Of a stretch of DNA of 64,000 nucleotides, positions 19,878 through 42,097 are shown piece by piece. Source of the DNA: Bacteroidota bacterium (GTDB lineage: Bacteria > Bacteroidota > Bacteroidia > Bacteroidales > DYOH01). The DNA lies in the NCBI GenBank assembly GCA_020048155.1, contig JAIFMY010000022.1, forward strand, positions 4,356 to 68,355, read 5' to 3'. The notes beneath the pieces were generated by a model. It did not search any database. It saw nothing but the letters and a program-made list of their open reading frames with translations, and was not told where the DNA came from. The translations under genes were made by a program, and so were the position numbers. How positions within the stretch are numbered: the stretch's first letter is position 1; each line of letters starts with the position of its first letter.

Positions 19878-20273
19878 CTAAACATTTGTTGAGTGCGCAT
19901 AATGCAGTATTATTTGTTGAATTTTGGTAAAAGCTTCCTGATCTTTTATTATAAATTCATTTATATTTTCTCTATTCAATTGGTAAATAGCTTCCAGATC
20001 ATTTTTAGCAGATAGAATGATGGTTCGAATGTTTTTATTGGTAGCCTTAATATCTTTCATAATCTCCAATCCGTTTCGGGCTGTATTTGAATGGTTGTTG
20101 AGATAATAGTCCATAATAACAAGCTGAGGGTTCAAGTGGAGATTGTTGAGGGCATCTTCACCATTCTGGAAAGGCACTATCTTAAACTCTTTCAATTCAG
20201 ATAAATAGTCTTTTAACATTTCCAGAAAAACCCAATCATCATCTACTATGAAAACGGTAAGTTTATCATTCAT
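19878..20273 (-). CDS. Stand-alone response-regulator receiver
   Basis: The motifs VFIVDDD, LVIMDYYL, ILSAK and IIKD are present. The gene starts 3 nt after the hybrid kinase stop. Confidence 0.85.
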   Translation of the reverse strand: MNDKLTVFIVDDDWVFLEMLKDYLSELKEFKIVPFQNGEDALNNLHLNPQLVIMDYYLNNHSNTARNGLEIMKDIKATNKNIRTIILSAKNDLEAIYQLNRENINEFIIKDQEAFTKIQQIILHYAHSTNV

Positions 20274-20276: not shown

Positions 20277-22790
20277 TTACTTTATTTTAGTCCAGTCATC
20301 TATCAATCCTTCAAGCAGATGCGCTGCATGCATCCACATAATTTCAATATTACCGGCTTTTGCATTTACACTTAATCTAAATTGTTCGTTATCAATATTT
20401 TGTTCTATTTCAAGTGCGGATATGTGAATTTGCTTCATGCCCAAATAATTCATAGTACTTTTGATAGAGTGGGCAATAGTACGAACTTTTTTCCAATCAT
20501 TATTCACGCAAGCTTCCTTCAATCCATAGATTTGTAAAGGAATTTGCTCCAGATACAATCTCAGGATGTCAATCATTTTAACGTAATTGTGGTTGTATAA
20601 CGAAAGTAACATACTAAAATCGAAATCATTGGCAGTAAGAATACTGTTTGGAACATTTTCAGTACTATCTGCTATCGTAGTTTTCGGAATCCCTAAATTC
20701 AACTTATTACCTGAAAGCAATTTCTGAATTTCGGCATATAGTTCGTTTGGTATGAATGGTTTGGTGAAGTATGAATTCATTCCTATTTCCAGACATTTTT
20801 CGGCCTCATCTTTGAGCGCATGTGCAGTGAGAGCGATGATAGGAACTCTACATGCAGGTTCGTTTAAATGGTTTCGTATATATTTGGTGGCTTGCATGCC
20901 GTCCATTACTGGCATTCTAATGTCCATTATCACTATGTCTATTCTATTGGTTTGCATCATTTCTATCCCCTCTTTACCATTGTTGGCTATAAGAAAGACT
21001 AAGTTTTTGTCAAAAACCTGCAAACTATCAATAAGTAGCCGTTGATTTATAAGATTATCTTCAACCACTAGTACAGTATACTTATCAGAATTAATGGATT
21101 GAACTATAGACAGACCTTTGGGTATAACTTCGCTTTCGGAATTTCCCAATTTGAGTTCTATGATAAATGTAGTACCTAAGTTGGTTTTGGATTCTACATG
21201 CATTTCTCCCCCCAATCCTTCTATTAGGAATTTGGCAAGTGATAAACCAATACCCGTGCCAAGCGGATTGATGTATACACCGTTCTCAATTTTTCCGAAC
21301 TGGTTAAAAAGCATGCTAATTTTTTCTTCGGGAATGCCAATACCAGTATCTTTTATATAAAACTCAATTTTATTTTCTATACGCCTTCTTACCCCATATT
21401 CGATAAATCCCTTTGGAGTGTATTTTATTGCGTTAGATATGAGTATAAGCAATACTTGTTTTAGCCTAATATGGTCGGTAACAAAAGTATATCCTTCCGG
21501 AAATTCAATATTTACTTTTCGAAGTTCAACATTATTATTATTGCCAAATATTTTGATTTGGTTTTCGATAGAGACCTGCAAATCTTCGAAAAACTTACTC
21601 ATAACCACTGGCTTAGGGTTCAGGATGAGCTGCCCAGACTGAATTTTTGCAATGTCAATGATATCATTTATCAGAAAAAGCAAGTTGCGGGTGTTGCTGC
21701 TGATAAAGTCCAGATATTCTTCTTTCTGGTTTTCAATCAAATCTTTGGATTGAAGTAGTTTTGTGAATCCAATAATGGCATTAAGAGGCGTTTTTATTTC
21801 ATGGCTCATATTGGCCAGAAATATAGATTTTATGTGATCTGCTTCCTCGGCGCGCAATTTTGCAGTATTGAGGTTCTCTTCGAGCAGTTTTTGTTGTGTT
21901 ATATCTTGTATAATGCCTTGAACTTTGAAATTTTTCTGTTTCCCATTATTGTTGGATGCTATTAGCTTGGCATGTCTGATGCCGGCCAATGGATGATTTA
22001 TTACAAATTCGACTTCAAAATCCTTGTTATTGAGTATAGAATCATCGAAAGAAATAAAAATTCTTTGGGTATCGTCTTTAGAAAGATTCACAAAAAGATC
22101 CTTTATTGTAAATAAATCTATATCAGACTCTACACCTAATATATTTTGGGTTTCGTCGCTAGTTCTTATGGTTGCATTGCTTTCTATATATTCCCAGTGA
22201 CCTATTTTAGCAATGCGCTGTGCTTGCCGCAACCTTTCTGATGCCAACATGGCAGTCTCGTCCTTTATATATGCTATCAAACAATCAGACAAATATGAAC
22301 CAGCAAGCTTTAAAAAGTCGAGTATTAAATCGGGAATTATGTATGGTTTGGTGGAATGAACAATCTGTACAGCCCATATATGGTTCTCAACATAAATCGG
22401 AATATATACCTGATTGATTTTAACTTTTACCGAAACACCTTCATCTTTATTTATCCAGTTACTTACGAATGCAATTAAATATTTGTCAGTAAATACGTTG
22501 ACGAAAAATTTTTCAACAAAATTGCTAACCAATGGCGTATTTGAATGAAAATAGGCCAAATTAAAAGTATCGGTCACATATGTATGTTTACTAAAATATT
22601 GGTTGGAAGGATGATAAACCAATGAAACAGCTTCGGCATTACATTGTGAATTTATAATAGATAAATATTGATCAACTTTTTGCTGAATGGATAAATCGGA
22701 AGATAACAAAGTTGAAATTTCGATAAGAGCAGACCAAAGATTTGATATATTACCGCCGGATGATGAGTTATCTTGAAGATTTTTTTCCAT
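20277..22790 (-). CDS. Soluble hybrid sensor histidine kinase (N-terminal GAF-like region, PAS, HisKA, HATPase, REC, HPt)
   Basis: The protein has the H-box SHEIKTPLNAIIG and ATPase boxes (ISNAIKYTP, DTGIGI, GTGIGLS). The REC domain reads VLVVEDN…VIMDIRMPVMDG…TKP, and the C-terminal HPt reads HSIKSTMNYLG. I saw no TM segment. Confidence 0.9.
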   Translation of the reverse strand: MEKNLQDNSSSGGNISNLWSALIEISTLLSSDLSIQQKVDQYLSIINSQCNAEAVSLVYHPSNQYFSKHTYVTDTFNLAYFHSNTPLVSNFVEKFFVNVFTDKYLIAFVSNWINKDEGVSVKVKINQVYIPIYVENHIWAVQIVHSTKPYIIPDLILDFLKLAGSYLSDCLIAYIKDETAMLASERLRQAQRIAKIGHWEYIESNATIRTSDETQNILGVESDIDLFTIKDLFVNLSKDDTQRIFISFDDSILNNKDFEVEFVINHPLAGIRHAKLIASNNNGKQKNFKVQGIIQDITQQKLLEENLNTAKLRAEEADHIKSIFLANMSHEIKTPLNAIIGFTKLLQSKDLIENQKEEYLDFISSNTRNLLFLINDIIDIAKIQSGQLILNPKPVVMSKFFEDLQVSIENQIKIFGNNNNVELRKVNIEFPEGYTFVTDHIRLKQVLLILISNAIKYTPKGFIEYGVRRRIENKIEFYIKDTGIGIPEEKISMLFNQFGKIENGVYINPLGTGIGLSLAKFLIEGLGGEMHVESKTNLGTTFIIELKLGNSESEVIPKGLSIVQSINSDKYTVLVVEDNLINQRLLIDSLQVFDKNLVFLIANNGKEGIEMMQTNRIDIVIMDIRMPVMDGMQATKYIRNHLNEPACRVPIIALTAHALKDEAEKCLEIGMNSYFTKPFIPNELYAEIQKLLSGNKLNLGIPKTTIADSTENVPNSILTANDFDFSMLLSLYNHNYVKMIDILRLYLEQIPLQIYGLKEACVNNDWKKVRTIAHSIKSTMNYLGMKQIHISALEIEQNIDNEQFRLSVNAKAGNIEIMWMHAAHLLEGLIDDWTKIK

Positions 22791-22802: not shown

Positions 22803-25376
22803 TTAAAGATGCGCAAGATCGCATTTTATACCTATTACCAAAATATCATCCACCTGATCTCGGCTTCCCTTCCAATCTGTGTAGGACTGATGTAATATGT
22901 TTTTTTGTTCGTCGAAAGGTTTGAGATGTATATCTACCAAGAGTTCCTGCATTTTTTTTGCCATGAATTTTCGGTCTTTGGGTCCGCCAAACTGGTCGGC
23001 ATATCCATCTGAGTAAAGATAAATAACATCATCAGGCAAAAAAGTATCTTCTATACTATTGAACGACACCTCGTTCTGATGGTACACACCTATAGGCATG
23101 CGGTCAGCATCAAATTTAGTTAGCTCACCATTTCTTATCCGGTACATGCCATTATTGGCTCCTGAGAACTGAAGTGTACTGTTGCTTCTATCGAGTATCA
23201 CCATTGACATGTCCATTCCGTCTTTGGTTTCAGTACCCGTTTTATTCAATTGGTGCAAAGATTCTATCACCTTACGGCGCAACTCATTGAGCAGTTGGTC
23301 TGATTTAAAATTAGGGTTTACGGTGATAATTTCGTTGAGGAAAGAAATGCCAAGCATACTCATAAGAGCCCCAGGTACACCATGCCCAGTGCAATCTGCA
23401 GCAGCCACAATGATGCGCGAACCCACTTGTCGCGCCCAATAAAAGTCGCCACTCACAATATCACGTGGGTTGTAATAAATGAAAAACTGATTGATAGAGC
23501 CTTTTATAATTTCAAGTGGGGTAAGCAATGCTTGCTGTATGCGCGATGCATACTGAATACTATCAACAATTGCTTTTCTTTGTTCCGAAATTTTATCGCG
23601 CTGTTCAATCACATAATCGCGTTGTATTTCAATTTCATCACGCTGAGCTGTTATTTCTTCCTTTTGTTGCTCAAGCGCATGGTTCTGAAGGTTGATTTTA
23701 TCGTTTTGAAGTTGAATTTCATCGCGCTGCTTCTCAATTTCTTTTTTCTGAGCAAAAAGCAAAGCATTGTCGCGCTTTTTTTGTTGGTAGTTTTTGAATA
23801 TAAGAAAAGCAACAGCAATCATTAGCAGCAACCCAACCGAAACGGCATTTCTGATAAGTTTTTGTCTTTGCAATTCAGCTTGACTTTTTATATCTTTTTC
23901 GTGCTGCTCAAACTCAATCTGCTTTTGTTTTTGGTCGAATTGATACTGCATGGCCAGCTGAGTGATTGTCTTTGTCATTTCTTCGTTGTTGAGGCTATCA
24001 CGCATTTGCTGCGAAAGGGCCAACATATCAAATGCATTCTGATAATCGCCTGTAGCGGCATATGCCTGGCTCAGATGATAACTTGATTCTCGTTTTATAT
24101 CCATCAGTTTCATCTGATTTCCCATAGAAAGTGCTTGTTGCAGAATTATGATAGCATTTTTGAAGTCCTTCATTTTGTTGTATATACTGCCAATATTGTT
24201 GTATCCAACAGCCATTCCCTTTAAATCACCAATTTGTTCCATGAGTTGGGCCCCTACCCTATAGTTATTCAATGCATCGGCCGTTTTGTGCATGCGTTTA
24301 AAAACTTCGCCCAAATTGTATCTGGCGGAGGCTTCAATTTGTTTGATTCCAAATTGTGTGCTCATATCTAATGTTTTCTGAAAATAATTGAGCGCTTCAG
24401 CCAAGTGTGAAGTATCTTTGTCAGCCATTTTAAGGTAAACATTTCCGAGGTTGTTGTATATTTGGGTTATGCCTACCATATCCGAAAATTCTTCACGTAT
24501 TTTCAAACTTTTGAAATAATAATCGAGACTCGATTCGTAATTTTCTTGTTTCAGGTGAATATTGCCAACATTGTTCAGTGTAGTAGCCATGCCGGCTATA
24601 TCGCTAATTTCTTCGCTTATACGCAAGCTTCGCAGATAAAAATCAAGTGCTTTGTCGTATCCACCTTGTTTTTCGAAAATATTTCCAAGGTCGTTATATA
24701 CAAAGCCTATTCCCCTTTTCTCGCCAATTTCTTCAAAAAGAACGAGAGCCTTGTTTAGTTTTTCGAGAGCAGTGGTATAATCTCCCTTATTTAGGTGTAC
24801 CGTGCTGATGGTATAAAGTGAATACCCAATCCATTTTTTGTCACCCAGTTCTTCGTTTATGCGCAGCGAACGTTCGTAGTAATCGAGGGTTTTTGTAAAA
24901 TCGCTGAAATTAAGATAGATATTTCCAAGATTGTTATAAGATGACGCCAGACCTTCTTTATTTTCTCTATTGTCAGGCTCGTCTTCTACAATCTTCAATC
25001 TGATTTCAATGCTTTCTTCAAAACTTTTAATCGAATTATCGGCATCGAAACTATTGAGATAATGAATACCGATGGCATGCAATGCCCGGGCTTTTGCAGC
25101 AGGCATGGCATCTGGTGAAGATAAAATCTCGTTTACAAGAGCTTCGGTTTGGTCACTCCTCTGAAGTGCAAGTTCATATGCGTAGTCCGCTTTCAGCCTC
25201 ATTTGCTCAGATTTGTTGCTGGTTTTGAGGATGAGCGATTTCAATGAGTCAGCTTTGTTTTGTGCAAAAACTGAATTGCATAAAACTGTGATCAGCAGTA
25301 CTATATATATATGTTTGAATGACTTCATTCTTAAATGTTTATTTACTGATTTTTTTTTGCATATAAAACTAATCAT
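22803..25376 (-). CDS. Periplasmic TPR sensor, TM, long heptad helix and SpoIIE/PP2C phosphatase
   Basis: The 857-aa protein has a signal peptide (…NSVFAQNK), many TPR-like repeats (YNNLGNIY…) and a TM segment (AVSVGLLLMIAVAFLIF). PP2C motifs VSGDFYW, DCTGHGVPGA, SDGYADQFGG and QVDDILVIG are present. An alternative start at 25328 is possible. Confidence 0.85.
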   Translation of the reverse strand: MISFICKKKSVNKHLRMKSFKHIYIVLLITVLCNSVFAQNKADSLKSLILKTSNKSEQMRLKADYAYELALQRSDQTEALVNEILSSPDAMPAAKARALHAIGIHYLNSFDADNSIKSFEESIEIRLKIVEDEPDNRENKEGLASSYNNLGNIYLNFSDFTKTLDYYERSLRINEELGDKKWIGYSLYTISTVHLNKGDYTTALEKLNKALVLFEEIGEKRGIGFVYNDLGNIFEKQGGYDKALDFYLRSLRISEEISDIAGMATTLNNVGNIHLKQENYESSLDYYFKSLKIREEFSDMVGITQIYNNLGNVYLKMADKDTSHLAEALNYFQKTLDMSTQFGIKQIEASARYNLGEVFKRMHKTADALNNYRVGAQLMEQIGDLKGMAVGYNNIGSIYNKMKDFKNAIIILQQALSMGNQMKLMDIKRESSYHLSQAYAATGDYQNAFDMLALSQQMRDSLNNEEMTKTITQLAMQYQFDQKQKQIEFEQHEKDIKSQAELQRQKLIRNAVSVGLLLMIAVAFLIFKNYQQKKRDNALLFAQKKEIEKQRDEIQLQNDKINLQNHALEQQKEEITAQRDEIEIQRDYVIEQRDKISEQRKAIVDSIQYASRIQQALLTPLEIIKGSINQFFIYYNPRDIVSGDFYWARQVGSRIIVAAADCTGHGVPGALMSMLGISFLNEIITVNPNFKSDQLLNELRRKVIESLHQLNKTGTETKDGMDMSMVILDRSNSTLQFSGANNGMYRIRNGELTKFDADRMPIGVYHQNEVSFNSIEDTFLPDDVIYLYSDGYADQFGGPKDRKFMAKKMQELLVDIHLKPFDEQKNILHQSYTDWKGSRDQVDDILVIGIKCDLAHL
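23553..23741 (-). repeat. 21-nt periodic coding repeat encoding 8 consecutive I-x-x-Q-(R/N/K)-(D/E)-x heptads
   Basis: The translation reads IEKQRDE IQLQNDK INLQNHA LEQQKEE ITAQRDE IEIQRDY VIEQRDK ISEQRKA and then IVDSIQY. On the plus strand the DNA shows recurring atcgcg(c/t)tg units. Confidence 0.8.
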
Positions 25377-25679
25377 TTACTAAGTTGAAGCCAAATTTAT
25401 GTTTAACTGGCAAGATATTCAAAATGAACATGAATAAGACTGCCAACAGACTTTGTCTACATGATAAAGCCAGATATTGCAATACTAATATAGACTTTAT
25501 TTTTTACTCTACACGAAATTGGATTTGAAAAGTCTAATGCAATTTTTTCATTTTGGGAAACGTGTGGGTTATGAACTCAATTATATGTTGTAATACAATT
25601 TTTATACCATAGCCCAGGTTAAATGTGAATCATATTTGCAAACCATACAAAAGGATGATTTTCGTCAAGCGATAATTGC

Positions 25680-26708
25680 TTATTGTATCTTTATATCACT
25701 TTCATTTTCAAGGACTTTACTTTTAATATTGGTAAGTTCGCTTCTAAGCAAATCAAGTTCCTTGTTGGTAATATCTATTACAAATTTCAATTTGCGGTGT
25801 CGCCCCAATTGTATAACCAATACGATGATTATAGAAATTATAGAAATAAATATGGTTACAGCCAGATATACTTTAAACTGAGAAATCAACTCATTGCGTT
25901 GCTCCACATTTTGTTTGGTAACGTTGAGTTGTCGTCTGAGTTCGTCTTCAAGTTGGTGTTTAGATGCTTTGAGGATTGAGTCGCTCACCACTTTCAGAGA
26001 ATCGTTGAATATTTGAACAGATTGAAGCTCCGATTGCGAAGTATCTGTTTGTAGCGCATTTTTTGATTTAGAATTTACTTCAGATTTTTGTAATTGATTG
26101 AGTTTGCTTTTATAAAACGCAATATTTTTTTCGTCTTTCTTTACTGTATATATTTCAATCATATCAATGTAGCAGAGTGTTAACAATTGCACATTATCTT
26201 CAAGTGGCAATAGCAGTTCTTCAGCAATTTTGTATTTCATTAGCGCATCTTCTGTACGTAAGATTTTGGAAAGTATGCGCCCGAGGTTAATAAGCCCGGC
26301 AGCCTGACTGTGAAATGCTTTGGCTTTGGACATAGCCTCGCAGGCTTTTTCAAGAGGTTCTATTGCATTTTCATGCTGTCCTAGGTCCACAAAAAGCAGG
26401 CTAAGTTCTTGGTTAACATCGTGCACGAGATAATTATTTTCTGCTTTATTTGCAGAATATGCAGATTTTTTGAGAAACTGAATGGCAAGCCCTCTCAGGT
26501 TTTTTGATTTGTAAATAATGGCTATATCCTTGTAATGATTGGCCGCCTTCTCGTAGGCATTATCTTGCAGACTAATTTCAGCTTTTTGGTTGAGTTGCTC
26601 AATTTGTTGCTTTTCCTCAAGAGTCAAAAAAACTGTTTGAGTATACGCCAGTGTACTATATTTTAAGATTAATATACTAAATATGAGTGCTTTTATTATA
26701 AATTTCAT
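25680..26708 (-). CDS. TPR, coiled-coil and TM protein, a sensor-only paralog of the TPR-PP2C proteins that lacks the phosphatase
   Basis: The 342-aa protein has a signal peptide, TPR-like repeats and one C-terminal TM segment (YLAVTIFISIISIIIVLVIQL). It ends in a ~40-aa cytoplasmic tail with no PP2C motifs. Confidence 0.7.
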   Translation of the reverse strand: MKFIIKALIFSILILKYSTLAYTQTVFLTLEEKQQIEQLNQKAEISLQDNAYEKAANHYKDIAIIYKSKNLRGLAIQFLKKSAYSANKAENNYLVHDVNQELSLLFVDLGQHENAIEPLEKACEAMSKAKAFHSQAAGLINLGRILSKILRTEDALMKYKIAEELLLPLEDNVQLLTLCYIDMIEIYTVKKDEKNIAFYKSKLNQLQKSEVNSKSKNALQTDTSQSELQSVQIFNDSLKVVSDSILKASKHQLEDELRRQLNVTKQNVEQRNELISQFKVYLAVTIFISIISIIIVLVIQLGRHRKLKFVIDITNKELDLLRSELTNIKSKVLENESDIKIQ

Positions 26709-26752
26709 TACCTATAGGTGCTTGAGTGATGAGTTAAAGATAGGACAGATTT

Positions 26753-28750
26753 TTAAATTTTTACTCCCATAACTAAAATATCGTCAACTTGTTCGAAGTT
26801 GGCTTTCCAGTCTTCAAATTCAAAAACTATGGCTTCTTTCTGTTCCAACAAAGATTTGAAAGAAATCCGTTCAAGCATTTTGTCGAAACGGCTTGATAAA
26901 AACTTTTTATTATCTAAACCTCCAAACTGATCTAGTATTCCATCTGTGGTTAAGTATATCATATCGTTAGGTTTAATCTCTATCGTTTTCTCCTTGAATG
27001 GGTTTAATGTATCAAAAGAAATGCCAATAGGCATTTTATCTGGCTTGTATTTGGTAAGAATTTGATCGCGAACCAAATATACCGGTTGGTTGGCGCCTGC
27101 GTATTTTATGTTCATGGCATGATGATCAATGATGCACAGTGCCATATCCATGCCATCGTGGTTGTTGTAGTAGAAAGATCCCGTTTGTCGCAGAGTTTCT
27201 ATAAGTTTAGCCCTAAGCAGATCAAGTATATGATTTGCATTCTGGCTACTGGTTTTACTCATTATTTCATTCAGAAATGCAATACCAAGCATGCTCATAA
27301 GTGCCCCCGGGACTCCGTGTCCGGTACAATCTGCTACGGCCAAATATGTAAGGTTGTTGCGCTGATTTACCCAATAGAAGTCGCCACTGACTATATCGCG
27401 AGGCTTGAATATAATAAAATAATCGGTAAGAGTTTGTTTTAGAAGATCAGCAGGAGGGAATAGTGCTTGCTGAATGCGTTGGGCATAAATAATGCTATCA
27501 GTAATTTTTTTGTTTTGCTCGGCAATCTGGTTTATTTGTCTGATTGCAATTTCGTGCTGATGTTCAATTTTGTGCTTCTGTTGCCTGAGAGTTTCAAGTA
27601 GTGCTCTTTGGTTCGTAATATCAACGAAACTGATAAGAAAATACTGTTTTCCTCTGATTTCAAAATCGACATGGTTGAGCAGGATTGTCACTTTATTGTC
27701 TTTCTCAAGAATCAACTCGCACTCAATACCGTCATTCTGATTGTATTGACGAAGTTGCGCCAAGGAAGAGTCTATATTTAACCTCAGGTATTGAGTAAAC
27801 TCCTTGCCAATGATATCATCTTCAGAGCAACCCAGCATATTCATTGCCAATCGGTTGGTTTTAACTATTTCATTCGTTTCGGGAATTATGAGAAAAATGC
27901 CAGCCTGTATGGTATCAATAATTACTTTAAGAAAACGTTCATTTTCCCTAACTGCTTCTTCTTCTTTGCGTTTGGCGTCTATATCACGAATCAGACAAAA
28001 AATCTTTTTATCGCTTTCAGATCCTATTTTACTCAATTCTAACTCAGCTAAAAAGAATTTGCCATTTTGCTTTTTTACCACCCATTCTATAGAGGTTTGT
28101 CCCAAGGTAAGAGTTTTTCTCAAGGTTTCGGCCACGCCTTGGCTTATAGACTCGTAAGTGGGTTTTATAAAAAACTGGAGCGGAAAGCCTACCAGTTGGT
28201 TTCGGTTGTTGCACTCAAAAACGCTTTGCGCTTGGGTGTTGCAATCGGTAATAATGGAATCTTCGATGATAATAAACGGGGTGTGTGCATTTTCAAAAAC
28301 CAGCCTGAATTTATTTTCGCTTTGCAGCAAAGCCTGATGTTTTATGGCAAGTTTTTTTTCGATTTCCCGTTTGTTGATGGCCATTTCAATCACAACCCTG
28401 AGGTGCTTTTCATCAAAGGGTTTTATGAGAAAACCTAAAGGATCTGTTTTTTTAGCTTCATTTATGATATGAGCCTCTATGGACCCAGTCATAAAAATGA
28501 CTTTGAGCAAATATTTTTCGCGGATTATATTGGCAGTTTGAATGCCGTTGAGTTTAAATTTGAGGTGAATATCCATGAGTATGAGATCAACGGAATTGCT
28601 TTCGATGAATTCGAGCGCCTCTTCGCCGGACTCAATGATAACCATATTGGAATACCCAATCCCCCTGAGCATTTCTTTGAGCAGGATGCTTATGGGCGGG
28701 GAGTCCTCCACTATCAAAACCCGTTCATTCTGTCTATCCAGAAAATCCAT
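26753..28750 (-). CDS. Response-regulator receiver, 2 PAS and SpoIIE/PP2C phosphatase
   Basis: The REC domain reads VLIVEDSP…LILMDIHL…IKP, followed by two PAS-like modules. PP2C motifs VSGDFYW, DCTGHGVPGA, TDGILDQFGG and QVDDILVMG are present. Confidence 0.9.
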   Translation of the reverse strand: MDFLDRQNERVLIVEDSPPISILLKEMLRGIGYSNMVIIESGEEALEFIESNSVDLILMDIHLKFKLNGIQTANIIREKYLLKVIFMTGSIEAHIINEAKKTDPLGFLIKPFDEKHLRVVIEMAINKREIEKKLAIKHQALLQSENKFRLVFENAHTPFIIIEDSIITDCNTQAQSVFECNNRNQLVGFPLQFFIKPTYESISQGVAETLRKTLTLGQTSIEWVVKKQNGKFFLAELELSKIGSESDKKIFCLIRDIDAKRKEEEAVRENERFLKVIIDTIQAGIFLIIPETNEIVKTNRLAMNMLGCSEDDIIGKEFTQYLRLNIDSSLAQLRQYNQNDGIECELILEKDNKVTILLNHVDFEIRGKQYFLISFVDITNQRALLETLRQQKHKIEHQHEIAIRQINQIAEQNKKITDSIIYAQRIQQALFPPADLLKQTLTDYFIIFKPRDIVSGDFYWVNQRNNLTYLAVADCTGHGVPGALMSMLGIAFLNEIMSKTSSQNANHILDLLRAKLIETLRQTGSFYYNNHDGMDMALCIIDHHAMNIKYAGANQPVYLVRDQILTKYKPDKMPIGISFDTLNPFKEKTIEIKPNDMIYLTTDGILDQFGGLDNKKFLSSRFDKMLERISFKSLLEQKEAIVFEFEDWKANFEQVDDILVMGVKI

Positions 28751-28780
28751 TTGGTCAAACTAAATATGAATACTTTTGGT

Positions 28781-30997
28781 TTATACCTTATTTTTCCCGT
28801 TCAATTTCAACCCAATAAAAAGTATATCATCTACCTGTTCGTATTTTCCTTGCCACTTTTTGAGGGTTCTATCAATTTCATTTTTTTGTTGTGCTACAGA
28901 AATATTTTGTATAGATGTGAGCAATTCTTTAACTTGTTTTCTTGAGAATTTAAGCTTCTCATCGCCACCAAATTGATCTTGAAGACCATCGGTAAACAAA
29001 TATATAACAATTTCGTTATTGTGAGAATAGTTATAGGTTTGTTTGGTAAATTGTCTGTCCTGTTCTCTTTGCAAACCGCCAATAGAAATATTATCCCCTT
29101 TGAATTGATCAAACTCACCATCACGGAAAAAGAAAACAGGGTTTTTGGCTCCGGCAAATTCAAATATCTTGTTATGGTGATCAATCACGCATAAAGCCAT
29201 ATCCATTCCGTCTCTGTTATCGTTGTGCTCCTGATTAAGTGCTTTGCGTATAAGTTTATGCAATGAAAGTAGTATAAGGTCGGCACTGGTGATATCTTCG
29301 TAAGTAATTATTTGTTCGAGAAAAGAGTCGGCGAGCATACTCATAAAAGCGCCGGGCACACCATGTCCGGTGCAGTCTATTGCAGCTACTATGGTCATGT
29401 TTTTTTGTTTCAGATGCCTATACCAATAAAAATCACCACTCACCACTTCTTTGGGTTTCAAGAATATAAATGAGTCGGGTATAACAGTTTTCAAGCCTTC
29501 GGTATCAAGCAAAAGTGCATTTTGTATGCGGCTGGCATAGGTAATGGATGCAGTTATGTGCCTGTTCTGATTCTGGATTTCTTCTTTCTGAATGATTATT
29601 TCTTTGTTAGCAACTCCTAGTTCTTCCTTTTGTTTTAGAATTTCATCTTTCTGTTTGTTTATCTCCTCATTTTGCAAAACAAGCTTGTGGTTTGAACGGT
29701 TGAGTTTGCGGCTGCTGGTATAATAATAATATCCGAAAAATGCTATAAATATCAATCCTCCAAGCAAGCTATATGTTTGTATACGGCTCCTCTTCAGTTC
29801 TTCATTTTTGAGTGCCTGGTCGCGGCGCAAAATTTCAATTTCCTTTTCCTGCCTTTGCAATTCCAGACTTACTTGCATTTCAGTAAGTCTCTCCTTCTCT
29901 CTCTCTTCGGTTATCTCATTCATGGTGGATACCAGTTTCTCAAGATTGGTGTTTGCCTCTTTCAGATTGCCATTTTCTGAATATAAAGTAGATAAAAGGG
30001 CGTAGCTACTCTTATACTCTTCCAGAAACCCGCTGTTAGCTTCTATGGATTTATGAGCGAAATCTATGGCTTTATTGCTATTTCCTTGTTGATATGAAAG
30101 GTGGGCAAACTTATTATAAATGAGCGTAATGTTTTCATTCTGATTTGTTTCTTGACTAATGATAAGTGCCCTGTCGTAATAATCTATTGCTTCAGCATAT
30201 TCTTCATTCTCGAAATGCATATCACCGTAAAGTACATATATTTCGGCAACTCTGTCTTTGTCTGCTTCAATTTTATGGCGTATCAGTGCTTCTTTCAATT
30301 TAAGTTTGGCACCATCAAAATCTTCTTGCTGTATTTTTAGTTTGGCTAAGTGAAACAAAGATTCTGCAATGTCCTTATTTACTTTGCTTTTCATGCGATA
30401 AGCCAAAGCACTCTCAAGTTTTTGTTTAGCGGTTTCTATTTGCTCAAGCTGAAGATATACAAGCCCAGCGCGATCGTCGGCAAGTGCTATTCCCGAAAAA
30501 TTATTTGTTTGTTTGAATAAGTCGGCGGCTTTGCTATAATACTCAATAGCCACTTCTTCCACCTTTTGAATGGCATAGAGGTTCCCGACATGTATATAAC
30601 ATATGCCCATTTCATTTTTATCGCCAAGCTGATCGAACAACTTAAAAGCTTTGAAATAATAATCCATGGCCAAATAGTATACCTTTTGCTCGTTGTAAAT
30701 AGCTGCAATATTCTGGAACATACTGGCTTGCAAATGAGGCAAATTCAAGGATTCGGCCAGAATCAAGGCTTCTGCGGCAATTTCGATAGCTAAATAAGGT
30801 TTATCGGTACGGGCCAACTGAAACATATGCCCGAGTTTTTTAATAGCCACGGTATCTTGCCCATTCTCTTGAATATGCTGCTCATACTCAATACGCAGAG
30901 AGTCGAGATCTGCCTGAGCCGATGCTTGTGAATGAAACAAAAGAATGAATGTTATATAAACAAATACACTCCAGATATGGACTAAAAAATATTTCAT
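28781..30997 (-). CDS. Periplasmic TPR sensor, TM, heptad helix and SpoIIE/PP2C phosphatase
   Basis: The 738-aa protein has a signal peptide (…SQASAQADLD), TPR-like repeats and a TM segment (LLGGLIFIAFFGYYYY). PP2C motifs VSGDFYW, DCTGHGVPGA, TDGLQDQFGG and QVDDILFIG are present. Confidence 0.85.
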   Translation of the reverse strand: MKYFLVHIWSVFVYITFILLFHSQASAQADLDSLRIEYEQHIQENGQDTVAIKKLGHMFQLARTDKPYLAIEIAAEALILAESLNLPHLQASMFQNIAAIYNEQKVYYLAMDYYFKAFKLFDQLGDKNEMGICYIHVGNLYAIQKVEEVAIEYYSKAADLFKQTNNFSGIALADDRAGLVYLQLEQIETAKQKLESALAYRMKSKVNKDIAESLFHLAKLKIQQEDFDGAKLKLKEALIRHKIEADKDRVAEIYVLYGDMHFENEEYAEAIDYYDRALIISQETNQNENITLIYNKFAHLSYQQGNSNKAIDFAHKSIEANSGFLEEYKSSYALLSTLYSENGNLKEANTNLEKLVSTMNEITEEREKERLTEMQVSLELQRQEKEIEILRRDQALKNEELKRSRIQTYSLLGGLIFIAFFGYYYYTSSRKLNRSNHKLVLQNEEINKQKDEILKQKEELGVANKEIIIQKEEIQNQNRHITASITYASRIQNALLLDTEGLKTVIPDSFIFLKPKEVVSGDFYWYRHLKQKNMTIVAAIDCTGHGVPGAFMSMLADSFLEQIITYEDITSADLILLSLHKLIRKALNQEHNDNRDGMDMALCVIDHHNKIFEFAGAKNPVFFFRDGEFDQFKGDNISIGGLQREQDRQFTKQTYNYSHNNEIVIYLFTDGLQDQFGGDEKLKFSRKQVKELLTSIQNISVAQQKNEIDRTLKKWQGKYEQVDDILFIGLKLNGKNKV

Positions 30998-31167
30998 CTG
31001 GTATTAATTCTCAAAATATAAACTTAATTTCCGATGCAGTATGTTAATGGTAAAAGTAACTAAATTGTTTTTAAATAGAAAGTATGTTTCACGATAATAC
31101 AAAAAACCATTCAGTATTTTATAAGTGAGGGAAATATAGAAAAGTAAATAGAAATTTAAAACAGATT

Positions 31168-34100
31168 TCAGATTGAAATACCTACAACCAAAATATCATC
31201 AATCTGCGATGTTCCGTGCATCCACTTATCCATTTCATTCTCAAAAATAGTATATTGCTGTTGCATAGGCAAGCAAGCGGTTTGGTTGAGTAAAAGTTCA
31301 AGTCGTTTGGTAAGAAATTTTTTGCCCAAAGGTCCCCCAAACTGGTCGCGATATCCATCGGTAAAAAGATATAATTTATTACCAGGAATGTAAGGAAACG
31401 TATTGACTGTAAAAGCAGCCGGAAGCTCTTGCGAATAAAACCCAATAGGCATTTTATCTGGCTTTAGCTTAAACAGTTCATTGGTTTTGCAGGTATACAA
31501 ATAAGCAGCATTGTTAGCCCCTGCAAATTGTACGATTCCCTCAGATTTGTTTATGGTTATCATAGCAATATCAAGCCCATCTCGTGTTTCCCCGTCTTTT
31601 CCGCGCTGATGAAGAGCAAGAATGAACCTCTCGCGCAATTGGTTGAGTAATTCTGCCGGATTCAAATCTTCGAGTCGTTGTATCAGGTCATTGAGATAGG
31701 CCATACCCAGGAGGCTGAGAAAAGCTCCGGGAATGCCATGACCTGTGCAATCTGCAACGGCTATAAATGCAACTCCATTTTTGTTGGCAGCCCAATAAAA
31801 ATCACCGCTCACAATATCTCTTGGTCTATTGAGTATGAAATAATCGTCGAAAAGTGCTTCGAAGAGCAGATCGAGCGGCAACATGGCTTGCTGTATACGA
31901 CTTGCATACAATATGCTATCGCGCATTTCCTTGTTTTGCTTAAAAATCTGATCTCTTTGGGCTTCAATTTCAGCATTTTTGCGCATTATCTCTTGCTCAG
32001 CAGATTTTACATTGCTAATATCGGTATCTACGGCAATCCATCTGAAAATGGTTCCATCGTCGTTGAAAATGGGAGTAATATTGGTCTGATACCAAAAACT
32101 TTCGCCTTCAACTACATCGTGGGTTACGTAATTGGCAGATTTAAGGTTGAAATCAAAATTATTGATGATTTCTTCTAAATCTGGACGAACTAAATGCTTG
32201 ATTTTATTAAAATTAGAACCTTTAAAATTTCGAAATTTAAACTTAAATAACCGCATAAAACCTTCGTTCCACCATTCAAAATCCCCTTTCTCGTTCAGAA
32301 TTACAAAAGAAGAATCTGCTTGTTTGGTAATAAGTGAAAACTGACGCAATTCATTTACCGATAATTTGAGCATTTCTGCCTGGGATCTTAGTTTGTTGGC
32401 TTGCAATTCTATTTCTTCCTTTTGTTTCGTTATTTCGGCGGTGCGATCCTGAATTATTTTCTCCAACTCAATTTTCTTTAACATGTATCGTCTTTGATAC
32501 ATTTTCTGCCCCAAATAAAAAACAACAATGATAACCAACACATAGAAACCGTATGCAGCAAAAGTCCTGTAAAAAGGAGGGCTCACGCCAAAATGAAACT
32601 CCGTATCTCCGGTAACCTGCCCGTCTATATTTCTGGCTCTTACTTTGAAAATATATTTCCCCTCAGGCAAAGCATTGTACACTACTACATTCTGAGAGTT
32701 CACCATATTCCACCCAATATCCAGTCCTTCAAGTTTATACTCGAAATAGGGTTTATTCCCGGGCACGTAAGTTGGTAATCCGAATTCAAATTTTATTTTA
32801 CTCCTTTTGTAAGCCAATTCATCATTAAGTATCAACTTATTTGGGCTTATGGTCGAAATTTTGCTCAAGTCAAATTCCATATTCTCTTGGTTCTTTTGGT
32901 TCCAAAAGGTTATTTTACTGAAAACTACACTCGGAAGTTGAATTTTTGTCTGCTTATTGAGAATTCTGTTGATGAGCAAAAAATTATCGTAATCACCTAT
33001 ACAATACTCATTTTCATTAATTTCGGCAAAAACAATATTGTCAGAATTCGGGTTATATCCAGCAGAGTATTCGGGAGTGATATTAAAAATCTTATTCTTG
33101 TCGTAACAACCAGTATAATAACCACTCACTGTAATAATCCAGATTTTGTCATATTTTCCACTTTTCAATGATTTTATATGCAAACGTTTGCCGTTTATTA
33201 TACGATTAAACTCCTGCGCCAACTCAAAGCCACCAGCTTTGTCACCACTCGAGTGGACATATTTATAAACATTTTCATTGGCCAAAACAAAAAGATTATT
33301 GTGGAACCAAACCGGGGAATACAATTCGTTGGGGGGTAATCCATCCTTTTGGGTAAATCTTGTAATACGTGGGGATTTAAAATCTGAATTTGCATCAAAT
33401 TGCAAACGGTAGACTCCACTGTTGTCTACTCCCAACCAAATATTCCCGTCGTTATCCTCAGCTATTTGACGAATTTCACCTTCTATATCAGCAAATTTCC
33501 CTAGGCTGTCTAGTTTCACTGCATTTTGATCACTTCGTATTTTATACAAATAAATGCCTGAAGGATTGCCAACAAAAAGAATTTTGTGATTAATGCTATA
33601 CTGATGCGCAAAAAGAGGACTATATATGCTGGCAAGTTGCACAATACGGCTCTCTTCTGCCAAACAAATGCCTCGCAGATATAACCCAAGTAATATTTTG
33701 CGATTTTCGGTCAATTTTACTTCAACAAAACCTTGGTTATATATATTTTTACTATCTACTTGGCTGAGTTCGCCAGAATTCATCCCCAGGTTGGTGTCGC
33801 TTATATCCAATTTATATGTAGCTCCATGAGTACCTAAGTACAAAACATGATTGAAAAAGTATGCATTGCTAAGTAAGTGTTGCAACCCATCATTGCGCGT
33901 ATAGCTATTTATCGGAATATTTAGAAACACTTTATAAATTTCATCTTCCGTTGCAAGCCAGAGTGTCTGATTAGCATCCACAAACATTTCATATATTGCG
34001 TCCACTGTAAGGCCGTTATTTCTATTCAACTCATAGAGTTTATCGCCGTTTTTAGATACTACTACCATTCCGCCATTGAGCGAGCTATACGCAAAATTTC

Positions 34101-34902
34101 CATCGGGCAATAGTTCACCCGAATACACCATTTTGGTATTAAAAAACTCACTGGCTGTTGTTTTGAATGCTTGCGTTTTATATGGTGGCTTTTTAGAAGC
34201 CAGAAATAAACCATGCTGCGAGGTGGCAATTATAAGATTATCTGCGTTGTAGTTCAAAATACTAGATATCCGGTATTTAGCCAAATCTGCACCTATTGGA
34301 GTCAATTTTACAGTATCATTTTCAATGATTGCAATACCAGAGTTTTCAGTAGCAATGAAAATACTATCACCACATTTAAATCCGCTAAAAATGCTAAAAT
34401 CCTTATCGTGCTTCAGAAGTGTCAGATTATTCTCTGCATACTTAAATACCTTCTTGGTGCCCACAATAAAATAGATTGCCCCCCCATATTCAATGATTTT
34501 CCAGACATCACCATTCTTGTCTTTTATCCGTTCAGAAATATTAGTATATCTCAGACCAGCCGGAGAGATGGTAAAATATCCGAACTCGCCGGTTCCACCT
34601 ACATACAACTTATCATCAATCAATAGCATAGATCTGACCAATGACTTGTTGCTAAGTTTAAAGAGAGTCCAATTATTGCCATCGAACCTCAGCAAACCTG
34701 AACCGTTTCCGAAGTACATAACTCCGGAAGAATCTTGAGCAATATCCCAATTCTGAGCACTTGCCCGATGTTGGGCATGCGAGTAGTTTTGTATGATAGG
34801 CTTCAATGATTGTATAAAAGGCGCACGGGATTGTGCCCAGATTTGGGATTCGGAGATGAAAATGAGAAATAAAACCAATATTTTTAGCAGTTTGGCCGGC
34901 AT
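31168..34902 (-). CDS. Periplasmic two-component-regulator beta-propeller with a Y_Y_Y-like domain, then TM, PAS and SpoIIE/PP2C phosphatase
   Basis: The 1244-aa protein has a signal peptide (…QIWAQSRAP) and ~750 aa of propeller-like repeats of the kind found in Bacteroides hybrid two-component sensors. An Ig-like segment (KPYFEYKLEGLDIGWN…GKYIFKVRARN) and a TM segment follow, then PAS. PP2C motifs VSGDFYW, DCTGHGIPGA, TDGYRDQFGG and QIDDILVVG are present. Confidence 0.8.
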   Translation of the reverse strand: MPAKLLKILVLFLIFISESQIWAQSRAPFIQSLKPIIQNYSHAQHRASAQNWDIAQDSSGVMYFGNGSGLLRFDGNNWTLFKLSNKSLVRSMLLIDDKLYVGGTGEFGYFTISPAGLRYTNISERIKDKNGDVWKIIEYGGAIYFIVGTKKVFKYAENNLTLLKHDKDFSIFSGFKCGDSIFIATENSGIAIIENDTVKLTPIGADLAKYRISSILNYNADNLIIATSQHGLFLASKKPPYKTQAFKTTASEFFNTKMVYSGELLPDGNFAYSSLNGGMVVVSKNGDKLYELNRNNGLTVDAIYEMFVDANQTLWLATEDEIYKVFLNIPINSYTRNDGLQHLLSNAYFFNHVLYLGTHGATYKLDISDTNLGMNSGELSQVDSKNIYNQGFVEVKLTENRKILLGLYLRGICLAEESRIVQLASIYSPLFAHQYSINHKILFVGNPSGIYLYKIRSDQNAVKLDSLGKFADIEGEIRQIAEDNDGNIWLGVDNSGVYRLQFDANSDFKSPRITRFTQKDGLPPNELYSPVWFHNNLFVLANENVYKYVHSSGDKAGGFELAQEFNRIINGKRLHIKSLKSGKYDKIWIITVSGYYTGCYDKNKIFNITPEYSAGYNPNSDNIVFAEINENEYCIGDYDNFLLINRILNKQTKIQLPSVVFSKITFWNQKNQENMEFDLSKISTISPNKLILNDELAYKRSKIKFEFGLPTYVPGNKPYFEYKLEGLDIGWNMVNSQNVVVYNALPEGKYIFKVRARNIDGQVTGDTEFHFGVSPPFYRTFAAYGFYVLVIIVVFYLGQKMYQRRYMLKKIELEKIIQDRTAEITKQKEEIELQANKLRSQAEMLKLSVNELRQFSLITKQADSSFVILNEKGDFEWWNEGFMRLFKFKFRNFKGSNFNKIKHLVRPDLEEIINNFDFNLKSANYVTHDVVEGESFWYQTNITPIFNDDGTIFRWIAVDTDISNVKSAEQEIMRKNAEIEAQRDQIFKQNKEMRDSILYASRIQQAMLPLDLLFEALFDDYFILNRPRDIVSGDFYWAANKNGVAFIAVADCTGHGIPGAFLSLLGMAYLNDLIQRLEDLNPAELLNQLRERFILALHQRGKDGETRDGLDIAMITINKSEGIVQFAGANNAAYLYTCKTNELFKLKPDKMPIGFYSQELPAAFTVNTFPYIPGNKLYLFTDGYRDQFGGPLGKKFLTKRLELLLNQTACLPMQQQYTIFENEMDKWMHGTSQIDDILVVGISI

Positions 34903-34938
34903 CCGATTGTAAAGTGTATCATATTTTACACCAAATAT

Positions 34939-36255
34939 TTATAATTTAATACCTATCACAAGAATATCGTCAAGTTGACCATACTCCAGCATCCAGTCAC
35001 TGATAGTATTATCAAGTATATTCACTTGTAGGGTAAAATCGTGTGGATGCAATTTCACCAAAAGTTCCTTAAATTGTTTAGCCAGAAATTTTCTTCCCGA
35101 TGGGCCTCCAAATTGGTCAATATAGCCATCTGTAGTGAGATACATGAAATCACCAGGTTTATAAAAATGTTCTGTTTCGGTAAACGAATTATGAATTCTG
35201 AACGTAATACCAATCGGCATTTTATCACCACGGTACTCAGTAAGTTCACCCTCCGAAATAAAATAAACACTGTGATAAGCCCCGCTGAATGTTACTTTAC
35301 GCTCAGTAGTATTTACAATACATAGACTTATATCTAAACCATCTTTTGTCTCAATATCCTTTCCGGTCTGATTCAAAGATTTGATGACCATATTCCGAAG
35401 TTCAAACAGGATTTCGGAAGGTTTCCATTCATTAATTTTCAAGAAAATCTCATTGAGCAACGAAATGCCCAAAACGCTCATAAGTGCCCCGGGTACTCCG
35501 TGTCCGGTGCAATCTGCGGCTGCAATTGCAATCAAATCATCTTTCTGATTGATCCAATAAAAATCACCACTTACTATATCACGTGGTTTATAAAGGATAA
35601 AGGAATCGGGGAAAAGGTTTTTGAAATTTTGCTCTGGCACCAACATCGCTTGTTGTATGCGTCTGGCGTAAAATATACTGTCCGTTATTTCTCTCTTTTG
35701 CTCAAGTATCTGGTCGCGTTGTTGTTCGGCCATATCACGTTGTGCTTCTATTTCATCTCTTTGCGATTCAATTTCTTCTTTTTGGCGCACTATTTCGGCG
35801 TTGCGTGAGGCAAGTTCCTCTTCGAGCCTATCTTTATCTTTTACGCGTTGCACCATAGCCTTCATTACACTTTGCATGAGTTCCTGGTGCGTTGACATAA
35901 GGTTGAAAAAACTACTTTGGCTAAGTGCTATAAGCGTAACCGGTGTAATGGTTGTTACCGAGGCGGTGCGCAATGAAGAGTCGATGATGGAATACTCGCC
36001 AAAAGTACTTGGGGCATCAAGCTGTGTAAAAGTGACGTATTCATCATGCACCCTCACGCTGCCTTCTTTCAGAATGAACATAGAGTCAGATACATCATTC
36101 TTAGCAAAAATAATTTTGTATGCATCCAAGCGAATGGTCACTAATTCACGGGCTATTTTGATCAGAATATCATCAGCAATAGATGCAAACAGGGAAGTTT
36201 GCTTCAGCGCAAGCATCTCGGCTTCATGTTCCATATGGGTGTATGCATCTGCCAT
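34939..36255 (-). CDS. Cyclic-nucleotide-binding domain, heptad helix and SpoIIE/PP2C phosphatase
   Basis: The cNMP-binding signature reads FILKEGSVRV…FGEYSIIDSSLRTASVTTITP. PP2C motifs VSGDFYW, DCTGHGVPGA, TDGYIDQFGG and QLDDILVIG are present. Confidence 0.85.
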   Translation of the reverse strand: MADAYTHMEHEAEMLALKQTSLFASIADDILIKIARELVTIRLDAYKIIFAKNDVSDSMFILKEGSVRVHDEYVTFTQLDAPSTFGEYSIIDSSLRTASVTTITPVTLIALSQSSFFNLMSTHQELMQSVMKAMVQRVKDKDRLEEELASRNAEIVRQKEEIESQRDEIEAQRDMAEQQRDQILEQKREITDSIFYARRIQQAMLVPEQNFKNLFPDSFILYKPRDIVSGDFYWINQKDDLIAIAAADCTGHGVPGALMSVLGISLLNEIFLKINEWKPSEILFELRNMVIKSLNQTGKDIETKDGLDISLCIVNTTERKVTFSGAYHSVYFISEGELTEYRGDKMPIGITFRIHNSFTETEHFYKPGDFMYLTTDGYIDQFGGPSGRKFLAKQFKELLVKLHPHDFTLQVNILDNTISDWMLEYGQLDDILVIGIKL

Positions 36256-36467
36256 TTGCTGATATTTAATTTAAGTATATTATGCTTCTGATAAAACTCT
36301 AAAGTAACAAAAACATTGTATGCAATAAAATCTGTTTAGTATTTTTTTGGCACAAATATTACTCGGCGTATTCACTTTATAAAAATACACTTGATTGCAA
36401 CGAGCTATTATACTAAATATGTAACACATACGCAAGTAAATACCCATTAGTTTTTCCCTAAAACACA

Positions 36468-36504: not shown

Positions 36505-36531
36505 GAAACTATGCAAAAAAAATTAAGCGAT

Positions 36532-37857: not shown

Positions 37858-37862
37858 GCTTT

Positions 37863-42074: not shown

Positions 42075-42097
42075 ACGATATAATGTATAATGTGTTA

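Follow-up and report, generated by a model that had tools for sequence, protein, structure and literature searches.

An array of five sensor-linked, SiaA-like SpoIIE/PP2C phosphatase genes in a Bacteroidales genome as a candidate multi-input partner switch

The stretch of DNA analysed here comprises 64,000 nt of contig JAIFMY010000022.1 from a Bacteroidota bacterium of the order Bacteroidales (assembly GCA_020048155.1) and is referred to as the window. At positions 22803-36255, on the minus strand, it contains an array of sensor phosphatase genes. A first-pass annotation made from the sequence alone had reported six consecutive same-strand genes here, five of them ending in a SpoIIE/PP2C phosphatase module. 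The six open reading frames (ORFs) were recovered at exactly the coordinates given in that annotation, and five of the six end in such a module, with scores of 51.6-75.1 bits against a Pfam gathering score of 25 bits for SpoIIE (PF07228). Domains were called with Pfam, and transmembrane segments were taken from a hydropathy scan. From the highest to the lowest coordinate, the array consists of the following genes:

34939..36255, minus strand: gene E, 438 aa; cNMP_binding (5.7e-14) and SpoIIE (4.9e-16, 60 bits), both Pfam; NCBIfam SiaA 2.6e-51
31168..34902, minus strand: gene D, 1244 aa; signal sequence, predicted periplasmic Reg_prop beta-propeller/Y_Y_Y module, transmembrane segment 777-799, PAS (PAS_9), helical linker, SpoIIE (60 bits)
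28781..30997, minus strand: gene C, 738 aa; signal sequence, predicted periplasmic TPR (TPR_12), transmembrane segment, coiled-coil linker, SpoIIE (1.5e-13, 52 bits); NCBIfam SiaA 4.6e-49
26753..28750, minus strand: gene B, 665 aa; receiver domain (REC; Response_reg 1.6e-19), two PAS domains (PAS_9), linker, SpoIIE (8.9e-21, 75 bits); NCBIfam SiaA 2.7e-52
25680..26708, minus strand: X342, 342 aa; signal sequence, weak TPR-like region, transmembrane segment 275-304, short cytoplasmic coiled coil, no catalytic domain
22803..25376, minus strand: gene A, 857 aa; signal sequence, predicted periplasmic TPR (TPR_12, 2e-45), transmembrane segment 507-530, long coiled coil, SpoIIE (1.7e-16, 61 bits); NCBIfam SiaA 1.8e-47

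The input modules differ among the phosphatases as had been proposed from the translations, since the Pfam profiles return TPR, REC with PAS, Reg_prop/Y_Y_Y with PAS, and cNMP_binding. The phosphate-binding cassette of gene E (FGE...RTA) is readable in the sequence, as are the receiver aspartate (LILMDIHL) and lysine (LIKPF) in the translation of gene B. The match of gene D to NCBIfam SiaA (3.8e-50) extends across residues 966-1241, the translation of gene C displays a hydrophobic segment at about residues 405-425, and the TPR and transmembrane part of gene A matches the NCBIfam model of a FimS-type TPR sensor (1e-39). The signal or anchor segments and membrane spans found in the hydropathy scan are consistent with a periplasmic location of the TPR and propeller modules. 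Gene A has two possible starts. Its longest ORF has 857 aa, and the gene calls on other contigs take a methionine 16 codons downstream, which yields 841 aa and opens directly at the signal sequence.

The sixth gene, X342, resembles in its predicted architecture a sensor half without an output. Its TPR matches in Pfam are sub-threshold only, and it displays weak similarity to the TPR region of gene A (E 3e-6). The product could act as a co-sensor or as a heterodimerising partner of the TPR phosphatases. As a truncated paralogue of A or C, X342 is at best a candidate, given that the similarity is weak and confined to the TPR region. A sigma-70 promoter scan of the array was uninformative (67 promoter-like sites, 66 expected), and there was no convincing intergenic terminator. 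Matches to the Bacteroidetes -7 box (TAnnTTTG) were detected in 3 of 11 gaps, two of them only 2-15 nt from a start codon, and no operon boundary was inferred from them. The Rfam scan yielded five tRNAs only and no regulatory RNA in the array.

The five phosphatase modules are apparently active; judged by their conserved residues, none is degenerate, in agreement with the first-pass annotation. The motifs (V/I)VSGDFYW, DCTGHG(V/I)PGA, DG(M/L)D, (S/T)DGxxDQFGG and Q(V/I/L)DDIL are kept in all five proteins. Nine residues listed as the active site of SiaA (D457, D474, C475, G477, D534, D600, G601, D604 and D653; PMC7647112) correspond to the invariant columns D101, D118, C119, G121, D179, D247, G248, D251 and D300, respectively, of the alignment of the five paralogues. 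Compared with the first catalytic domain, the others show 41-52% identity, which marks the five as old paralogues and not as recent copies.

When a profile of the five linker-plus-PP2C regions was compared with the sequences of the PDB, a single match at E<=1e-3 was obtained, 6K4E (E 2.3e-56), which is the PP2C domain of Pseudomonas aeruginosa SiaA (PMC7647112). None of the chains of RsbU, RsbP, SpoIIE, RsbX and Rv1364c reached this threshold. Likewise, the NCBIfam model SiaA (NF038263) matches all five proteins with E 1e-47 to 1e-52 at model positions of approximately 363-657 of 658, that is, over linker and PP2C. An AlphaFold2 model of gene E, calculated from a 36-sequence alignment (mean pLDDT, the predicted local distance difference test, of 91), comprises a beta-barrel (39-112), an uninterrupted 81-residue helix (124-204) and the PP2C domain (218-437), into which the helix runs. 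The top Foldseek match of this model is SiaA (6k4e_B, E 2.5e-23, template modelling (TM) score 0.92, root-mean-square deviation 1.9 A). The next protein follows at 3e-12, so that SiaA lies 11 orders of magnitude ahead of RssB and SpoIIE. SiaA, RssB, SpoIIE, RsbX and tPphA all matched the PP2C alpha-beta-beta-alpha fold, modelled for gene E only, at probability 1.00, and the predicted cyclic-nucleotide-binding domain of gene E aligned to that of MlotiK1 with a TM score of 0.87. By these profile comparisons, SiaA is the closest characterised and solved relative of the linker-plus-PP2C region in all five proteins, and the predicted fold of gene E points the same way. The alignment to SiaA is ungapped, which implies the same Flap-less domain layout. 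The SiaA docking residue F612 was not used as evidence, because the invariant Lys-Phe of the paralogues lies two columns off in a flexible loop of the hidden Markov model (HMM) alignment. For RsbU, control through a helical or coiled-coil linker has been demonstrated, and the mechanism was proposed to be a general one among bacterial PPM phosphatases, including those whose sensors are REC, PAS, GAF or HAMP (PMC12143880); the long helix in the gene E model matches this mechanism.

The array is conserved in a related species. In locus L091 (Logan SRR32934939), the order is a lysozyme-family gene, cNMP-PP2C, propeller-PP2C, TPR-PP2C, REC-PAS-PP2C, the X342 homologue and the next gene; the conservation asked for in the first-pass annotation is thus found. 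The identities to L091 are as follows:

Gene E: overall 83%, sensor 87%, linker plus PP2C 81%
Gene B: overall 83%, sensor 84%, linker plus PP2C 83%
Gene C: overall 78%, sensor 71%, linker plus PP2C 82%
Gene D: overall 59%, sensor 52%, linker plus PP2C 79%
X342: overall 66%, same position in the array

Linker and PP2C are uniformly conserved (79-83%), whereas identity falls to 52-71% in the periplasmic sensors of D and C. Read from these identities, a common output of the array would be conserved while its inputs diversify, and the pattern speaks against redundant copies in decay.

SiaA acts in a described partner switch. It dephosphorylates SiaC at phosphothreonine 68 (pT68), SiaB is the kinase, and unphosphorylated SiaC activates the diguanylate cyclase SiaD (PMC7647112, PMC8457831). 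SiaC belongs to DUF1987 and has a STAS-like fold with negligible sequence similarity to RsbV (PMC7647112, PMC8457831). The first-pass annotation had looked for STAS and RsbW-type partners only, so that SiaB and SiaC would have gone unrecognised. Its statement that the 64 kb contain no STAS, RsbW-like or sigma-factor ORF holds: STAS, HATPase_c_2 and sigma-70 family domains were absent from every substantial ORF of the window. The window is tightly packed, with nine ORFs of at least 50 aa lying mostly outside the substantial ORFs; four of these nine were scanned with Pfam and gave SecE, S21 and two without a match. What the window does contain is a ribosome hibernation factor and, as its only sigma-related regulator, a sigma-54 activator (4896-6326). 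A 115.7-kb metagenome contig that contains the window (JGI 3300001765 MIS_1001056) added 10 kb of flanking DNA at each end and extended the visible DNA to 84 kb. Within these flanks, neither STAS, RsbW-like or sigma-70 genes nor further PP2Cs were found. No GGDEF gene is present in the window, and the Pfam scans revealed no Ser/Thr kinase of any type in the window or in the signalling island around the array. Two ORFs close to the array were considered as partners and rejected for lack of a family match, namely, a 78-aa ORF upstream of gene E (36280-36516) and a 259-aa ORF (37863-38642).

The phosphatases belong to a very large family. A protein search returned at least 8,000 matches at E<=1e-20, with cNMP, TPR, HAMP, 7TMR-DISM, DUF4154/YfiR, REC, Y_Y_Y/Reg_prop, PAS and HD modules among their sensors, and each of the five architectures of the window is common in public data and metagenomes. 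At least 596 relatives turned up in a pattern scan of the GTDB species representatives, and the 80 best of them were used with +-10 kb of surrounding DNA each; these 80 loci are all from Bacteroidales/Bacteroidia metagenome-assembled genomes and carry relatives of 40-51% identity. A single pattern scan with gene B revealed no close relative of this gene in the GTDB representative set. Of the 80 loci, 68 carry a single PP2C copy, 6 carry two, 3 carry three and 2 carry four; none reaches five. Five copies within 13.5 kb are therefore far from chance, and the window is the extreme of the copy-number distribution, not different in kind.

Clustering of the neighbouring genes revealed a family of approximately 125 aa directly beside the phosphatases in nine loci, which was identified as SiaC (Pfam/NCBIfam, E 1e-37 to 1e-40). 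Adjacent proteins of approximately 175 aa, or double versions of approximately 380 aa, are SiaB-family kinases (DUF6272) above the cut-off. Altogether, SiaC is linked in 9 of the 80 GTDB loci and a SiaB-family kinase in 5, all above the Pfam or NCBIfam cut-offs; an additional locus, L092, also carries SiaC. When the 133 small proteins encoded no more than 5 kb from the phosphatases of the 80 loci were sorted by family, SiaC came first (10 members), followed by extracytoplasmic function (ECF) sigma factors (4), DUF6272 (3) and STAS (2). HATPase_c_2 was not among the 25 most frequent neighbour families. Small proteins directly adjoining the PP2Cs of the relatives had been candidates for STAS proteins; they turned out to be ABM, YqeY, MORN or sigma-70 region 2 (ECF-type) proteins, or remained unmatched.

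Several of the linked loci contain more than one sensor phosphatase. In L021, three tandem sensor PP2Cs (one TPR, two propeller) are convergent with SiaB-SiaC-SiaC. In both L058 and L062, one operon comprises PP2C, TPR-PP2C, SiaB and SiaC. In L092, a cNMP-PP2C (43% identical to E), a 7TMR-DISM-PP2C-REC and a TPR-PP2C are arranged around a single SiaC; a 389-aa neighbour of this SiaC was rejected as a double SiaB because its sequence looks like MORN-type repeats. The SiaC-like proteins of Bacteroidales match the solved SiaC with E 4e-26, and 11 of 12 have Ser or Thr at the position of T68. In a neighbour-joining tree of the PP2C domains, the SiaC-linked phosphatases are scattered among the unlinked ones and form no separate clade. 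The window's domains share 33-52% identity with the SiaC-linked ones, which is the range of all pairs (median 44%); at the level of sequence, nothing marks the window enzymes as a separate substrate class.

The SiaC genes of this lineage are often found apart from phosphatase and kinase genes. SiaC and SiaB HMMs were built from the relatives, the latter from three sequences only and hence narrow. Of 28 metagenome loci centred on SiaC and at least 8 kb long, 19 had no SiaA-like PP2C or SiaB nearby (as judged with the narrow SiaB HMM). The dispersal of SiaC, SiaB and the phosphatases thus seems to be the rule here. Many SiaC genes stand alone in housekeeping surroundings, between tsaD and a gene for an AI-2E-family transporter, with no phosphatase or kinase near (approximately 20 metagenome loci, e.g., L143:1760-4594, L165:6456-9308 and L171:8914-9933; also L037:970-2629). 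Another recurrent arrangement is a sensor-PP2C-REC gene followed by one or two SiaC genes (L003:8901-13417, L009:7287-12085, L092:12446-15596 and L106:5674-7407), which in L003, L009 and L106 is flanked by genes for large OmpL47-type or Big-domain surface proteins. Among 120 listed of 490 SiaC profile matches, none was attributable to the organism itself, and a metagenome scan with a 9-sequence SiaC subset returned no contig from the window's samples.

The array is part of a wider signalling island of eleven genes on one strand, which are separated by very short gaps. Downstream of gene A, it contains:

20277..22790, minus strand: hybrid histidine kinase, 837 aa, cytoplasmic; HisKA, HATPase_c, REC and Hpt (Pfam); starts 12 bp downstream of gene A
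19878..20273, minus strand: single-domain receiver, 131 aa; Response_reg 5.2e-15; 3 bp after the kinase
16431..19757, minus strand: output-less membrane sensor, 1108 aa; dCache, GAF and several PAS; HAMP not detected (Pfam)
14122..16434, minus strand: second output-less sensor, 770 aa; dCache, HAMP, GAF and PAS; 4-bp overlap with the gene at 16431..19757
13547..13945, minus strand: second single-domain receiver, 132 aa, TTG start; Response_reg 7.2e-26

All four kinase domains exceed the Pfam cut-offs, the Hpt domain narrowly (25.1 vs 24.6 bits), and the H-box (SHEIKTPLN), the receiver aspartate (VIMDIRMP) and the Hpt histidine (AHSIKS) are readable in the translation. By proximity and by analogy to HptB-HsbR, the kinase and the receivers probably form a phosphorelay into the REC domain of gene B. 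Homologues of the dCache-HAMP-GAF-PAS sensor are divergently paired with TPR-PP2C genes in L042:5637-8405, L052:5635-8475 and L060:6028-8370 and 14741-17053, and a further one lies approximately 6 kb from a TPR-PP2C gene (L067:202-2520). This suggests that the output-less sensors are functionally tied to the TPR-PP2Cs. Judged by the gaps between the genes, E-D, C-B-X342, A-kinase-receiver and the two output-less sensors may be separate operons. A 133-aa ORF (13499-13900, plus strand) antisense to the receiver gene 13547-13945 has no family match and is almost certainly spurious.

With a probability of roughly 0.6, we favour the reading that the array is the input side of a multi-input SiaABC-type partner switch, in which the five sensor phosphatases act on a SiaC-family phosphoprotein kept by a SiaB-family kinase, both encoded elsewhere. 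A to E would be Mn2+/Mg2+-dependent Ser/Thr phosphatases of a SiaA-like branch of the SpoIIE/PPM family. Each of them would be a dimeric sensor whose N-terminal input controls the catalytic domain via a long helical, probably coiled-coil, linker. The inputs would be received by a periplasmic TPR module in A and C, by a periplasmic beta-propeller/Y_Y_Y module and PAS in D and, in the form of a cyclic nucleotide, by E; B would respond to His-Asp phosphorylation and through its two PAS domains and would probably be fed by the adjacent Hpt-bearing hybrid kinase. The common substrate would be a phosphorylated SiaC-family (DUF1987) protein, the phosphorylation of which is kept up by the SiaB-family kinase. 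Any active phosphatase could then produce unphosphorylated SiaC, which would bind and switch an effector, resulting in a many-inputs-to-one switch. The identity of the substrate, the convergence of the five enzymes, the relay from the kinase to B and the effector are those parts of the scheme that we infer.

Several observations weigh against this reading. Six-frame HMM searches of the window found neither SiaC (best E 0.21) nor SiaB (best E 0.75, with an HMM that is narrow because it derives from three sequences), and neither was found in the 10 kb beyond each window end. Only 9 of the 80 loci of the relatives are linked to SiaC, and 71 lack it within 10 kb. The five proteins reach 162-178 bits against the SiaA equivalog cut-off of 700 and are therefore not SiaA orthologues. 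Two neighbours of the relatives are classical Pfam STAS proteins and three loci contain a SpoIIAA-like protein (PF11964), and some members of the family may have other substrates. The convergence of all five phosphatases on one substrate is, moreover, an assumption.

A tentative alternative, to which we give clearly less weight, takes two forms. In the first, the SiaB/SiaC switch was rewired in Bacteroidia into a large dispersed network, in which many sensor phosphatases, a phosphorelay and output-less co-sensors act on a stand-alone SiaC that switches an effector such as an adenylate or guanylate cyclase, with gene E closing a feedback loop. In the second, the genome lacks SiaB and SiaC, and the array acts on a new class of substrate. 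The effector probably differs from SiaD, since the Bacteroidales loci examined show no GGDEF gene adjacent to SiaC. Next to the PP2C-SiaB-SiaC operons of L058 and L062, at 7781-9382 and 7062-8666, respectively, there are genes for class III adenylate/guanylate cyclases (REC-PAS-cyclase or cyclase-HD), and further cyclase genes are located at L060:18082-20904 and L046:78-1490. In L032, a class IV CyaB gene (13407-13946) comes directly after SiaC, and ten loci of a single lineage (L127, L138, L141, L143, L148, L149, L154, L160, L165 and L170) have a cyclase-HD gene two genes away from SiaC. There are weak hints that cyclic-nucleotide synthesis may be an output of the SiaC switch in Bacteroidia, from few loci, mostly of one lineage and without operon linkage. 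Besides adenylate cyclases, OmpL47-type surface proteins are candidate effectors.

The remaining explanations differ in the substrate or deny a common one. A classical RsbU-type arrangement, in which the five phosphatases act on a canonical STAS anti-anti-sigma protein with an RsbW-type kinase and a sigma factor, all encoded elsewhere, would suit the Pfam SpoIIE assignment of the domains and the label 'serine phosphatase RsbU' that the databases give to their relatives. The two STAS proteins, the four ECF sigma factors and the three loci with PF11964 in the neighbourhood of the relatives point in the same direction. However, SiaA is the only protein of the PDB to reach E<=1e-3, and its fold match is 11 orders better than that of RssB and SpoIIE. 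SiaC outnumbers STAS among the neighbours by 10 to 2, and HATPase_c_2 is missing from the top 25 neighbour families; we regard the classical arrangement as unlikely. A local circuit without any STAS-like switch, in which the phosphatases remove phosphate from Ser or Thr of island proteins (the output-less sensors, X342, the kinase and the receivers) or from substrates of Hanks-type kinases, appears quite unlikely. The eleven one-strand signalling genes with their very short gaps, the pairing of output-less homologues with TPR-PP2C genes in L042, L052 and L060 (approximately 6 kb apart in L067) and the 71 of 80 loci without SiaC within 10 kb are in accordance with it. Nevertheless, in the absence of a Ser/Thr kinase from island and window, nothing local would make the phospho-sites, and the gene pairing is equally explained by co-regulation or shared signals. 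To our knowledge, there is no precedent for SpoIIE-type PP2Cs acting on such output-less sensors.

Least probable, and in our view distinctly improbable, is a lineage-specific duplication of an abundant family that left copies with overlapping or little individual function. The family is indeed huge, with its at least 8,000 matches at E<=1e-20, and tandem, recently duplicated TPR-PP2Cs exist elsewhere, as in L076 and L042, where the copies cluster in the tree. The copies of the array, in contrast, are 41-52% identical, carry four different kinds of sensor and have kept every catalytic residue. Their order is conserved in L091, and the 79-83% identity of linker and PP2C argues for purifying selection on each gene.

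Outside the island, the window contains several genes that were recorded without reference to the switch. At 3702-4676 (plus strand), a TseH-like type VI secretion effector domain is combined with DUF6695 (Pfam 7.6e-42 and 6e-15, respectively), and no type VI secretion genes are visible nearby. The sigma-54-dependent activator at 4896-6326 (minus strand) consists of AAA+ and HTH_8; its first approximately 170 residues match no receiver or sensor family. Between the array and amtB (36532-39291) lie genes for a phage-lysozyme-family protein with an N-terminal extension of approximately 90 aa, for a small protein with a sub-threshold match to Bflower_2 and for a Schlafen/AlbA_2 protein, together with a 259-aa ORF that starts with TTG and has no annotation; these genes flank the array in L091, too. 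A housekeeping block at 41757-56906 comprises DUF3467, ORFs of the size of rpoC and rpoB (not family-scanned), ORFs of ribosomal-protein size (L11 and L1 confirmed on the metagenome contig), nusG, secE, tRNA-Trp, tuf, the tRNAs Thr/Gly/Tyr/Thr, the hibernation factor, a XerC-like recombinase and rpsU. This block indicates that the window is chromosomal.

Studies of Ser/Thr partner-switching come from Firmicutes, Actinobacteria, Chlamydia and Proteobacteria; for Bacteroidia, no experiments on it, or on this phosphatase family, were found in the literature. The first-pass annotation had interpreted the cluster as a multi-input hub and as a candidate for an undescribed signalling system. The hub stands in so far as the sequences argue for a genuine array of phosphatases with several inputs, all of them apparently active. 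An undescribed system is not supported, because the catalytic modules are SiaA-like, SiaA has the described partners SiaB and SiaC, relatives of the array are linked to SiaB/SiaC genes and the architectures are common. The system is uncharacterised in Bacteroidia yet not new in kind. In the Bacteroidales, the SiaA-like sensor phosphatases form a very large family whose sensors are interchangeable and which in some genomes is linked to SiaB/SiaC. Should the five phosphatases share a single SiaC-type target, the array would offer a compact model of the integration of periplasmic, phosphorelay and second-messenger signals. In this lineage, with no diguanylate cyclase gene seen next to SiaC, the downstream effector would be new biology. 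The result also corrects a habit of annotation, as the likely partners of proteins labelled 'RsbU' are DUF1987 and DUF6272 proteins.

Among the known systems, SiaABCD of P. aeruginosa is similar to the array in the linker-plus-PP2C region, which is closest to SiaA and keeps its active-site residues, and in the operons that Bacteroidales relatives form with SiaB and SiaC genes. In contrast, the array genes are not orthologues, their sensors (TPR, propeller, REC-PAS and cNMP) replace the membrane/HAMP module of SiaA, and five phosphatases are present instead of one, with no siaB, siaC or siaD nearby. The RsbU/RsbP-RsbV-RsbW-sigma-B system of Bacillus subtilis and SpoIIE-SpoIIAA-SpoIIAB-sigma-F share the enzyme superfamily (Pfam SpoIIE) with the array. 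The sigma-B system follows the logic proposed for the array, with several sensor phosphatases acting on one phosphoprotein, as RsbU and RsbP both act on RsbV. The array lacks the N-terminal domain of RsbU as well as RsbT, and the window has no STAS, RsbW or sigma-70 gene; a helical linker of the kind that dimerises the PP2C domains in RsbU (PMC12143880) is a predicted feature in common.

The receiver-controlled PP2C of gene B, in an island that holds an Hpt-bearing hybrid kinase and two receivers, is comparable to HptB-HsbR-HsbA of P. aeruginosa (a pathway named in PMC8457831) and to RsbY, a REC-PP2C protein of Bacillus cereus. It follows the same logic, in which a His-Asp relay would gate a partner-switch phosphatase. 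Gene B differs from HsbR in that two PAS domains lie between REC and PP2C and the C-terminal kinase domain of HsbR is missing, and no HsbA-type STAS protein is encoded near it. The periplasmic module of D is the same as that of the Reg_prop/Y_Y_Y hybrid two-component sensors of Bacteroidetes, and the periplasmic TPR modules of A and C are shared with FimS-type kinases. Whereas these sensors of Bacteroidetes are coupled to a histidine kinase/response-regulator cassette, the output of the array is PP2C.

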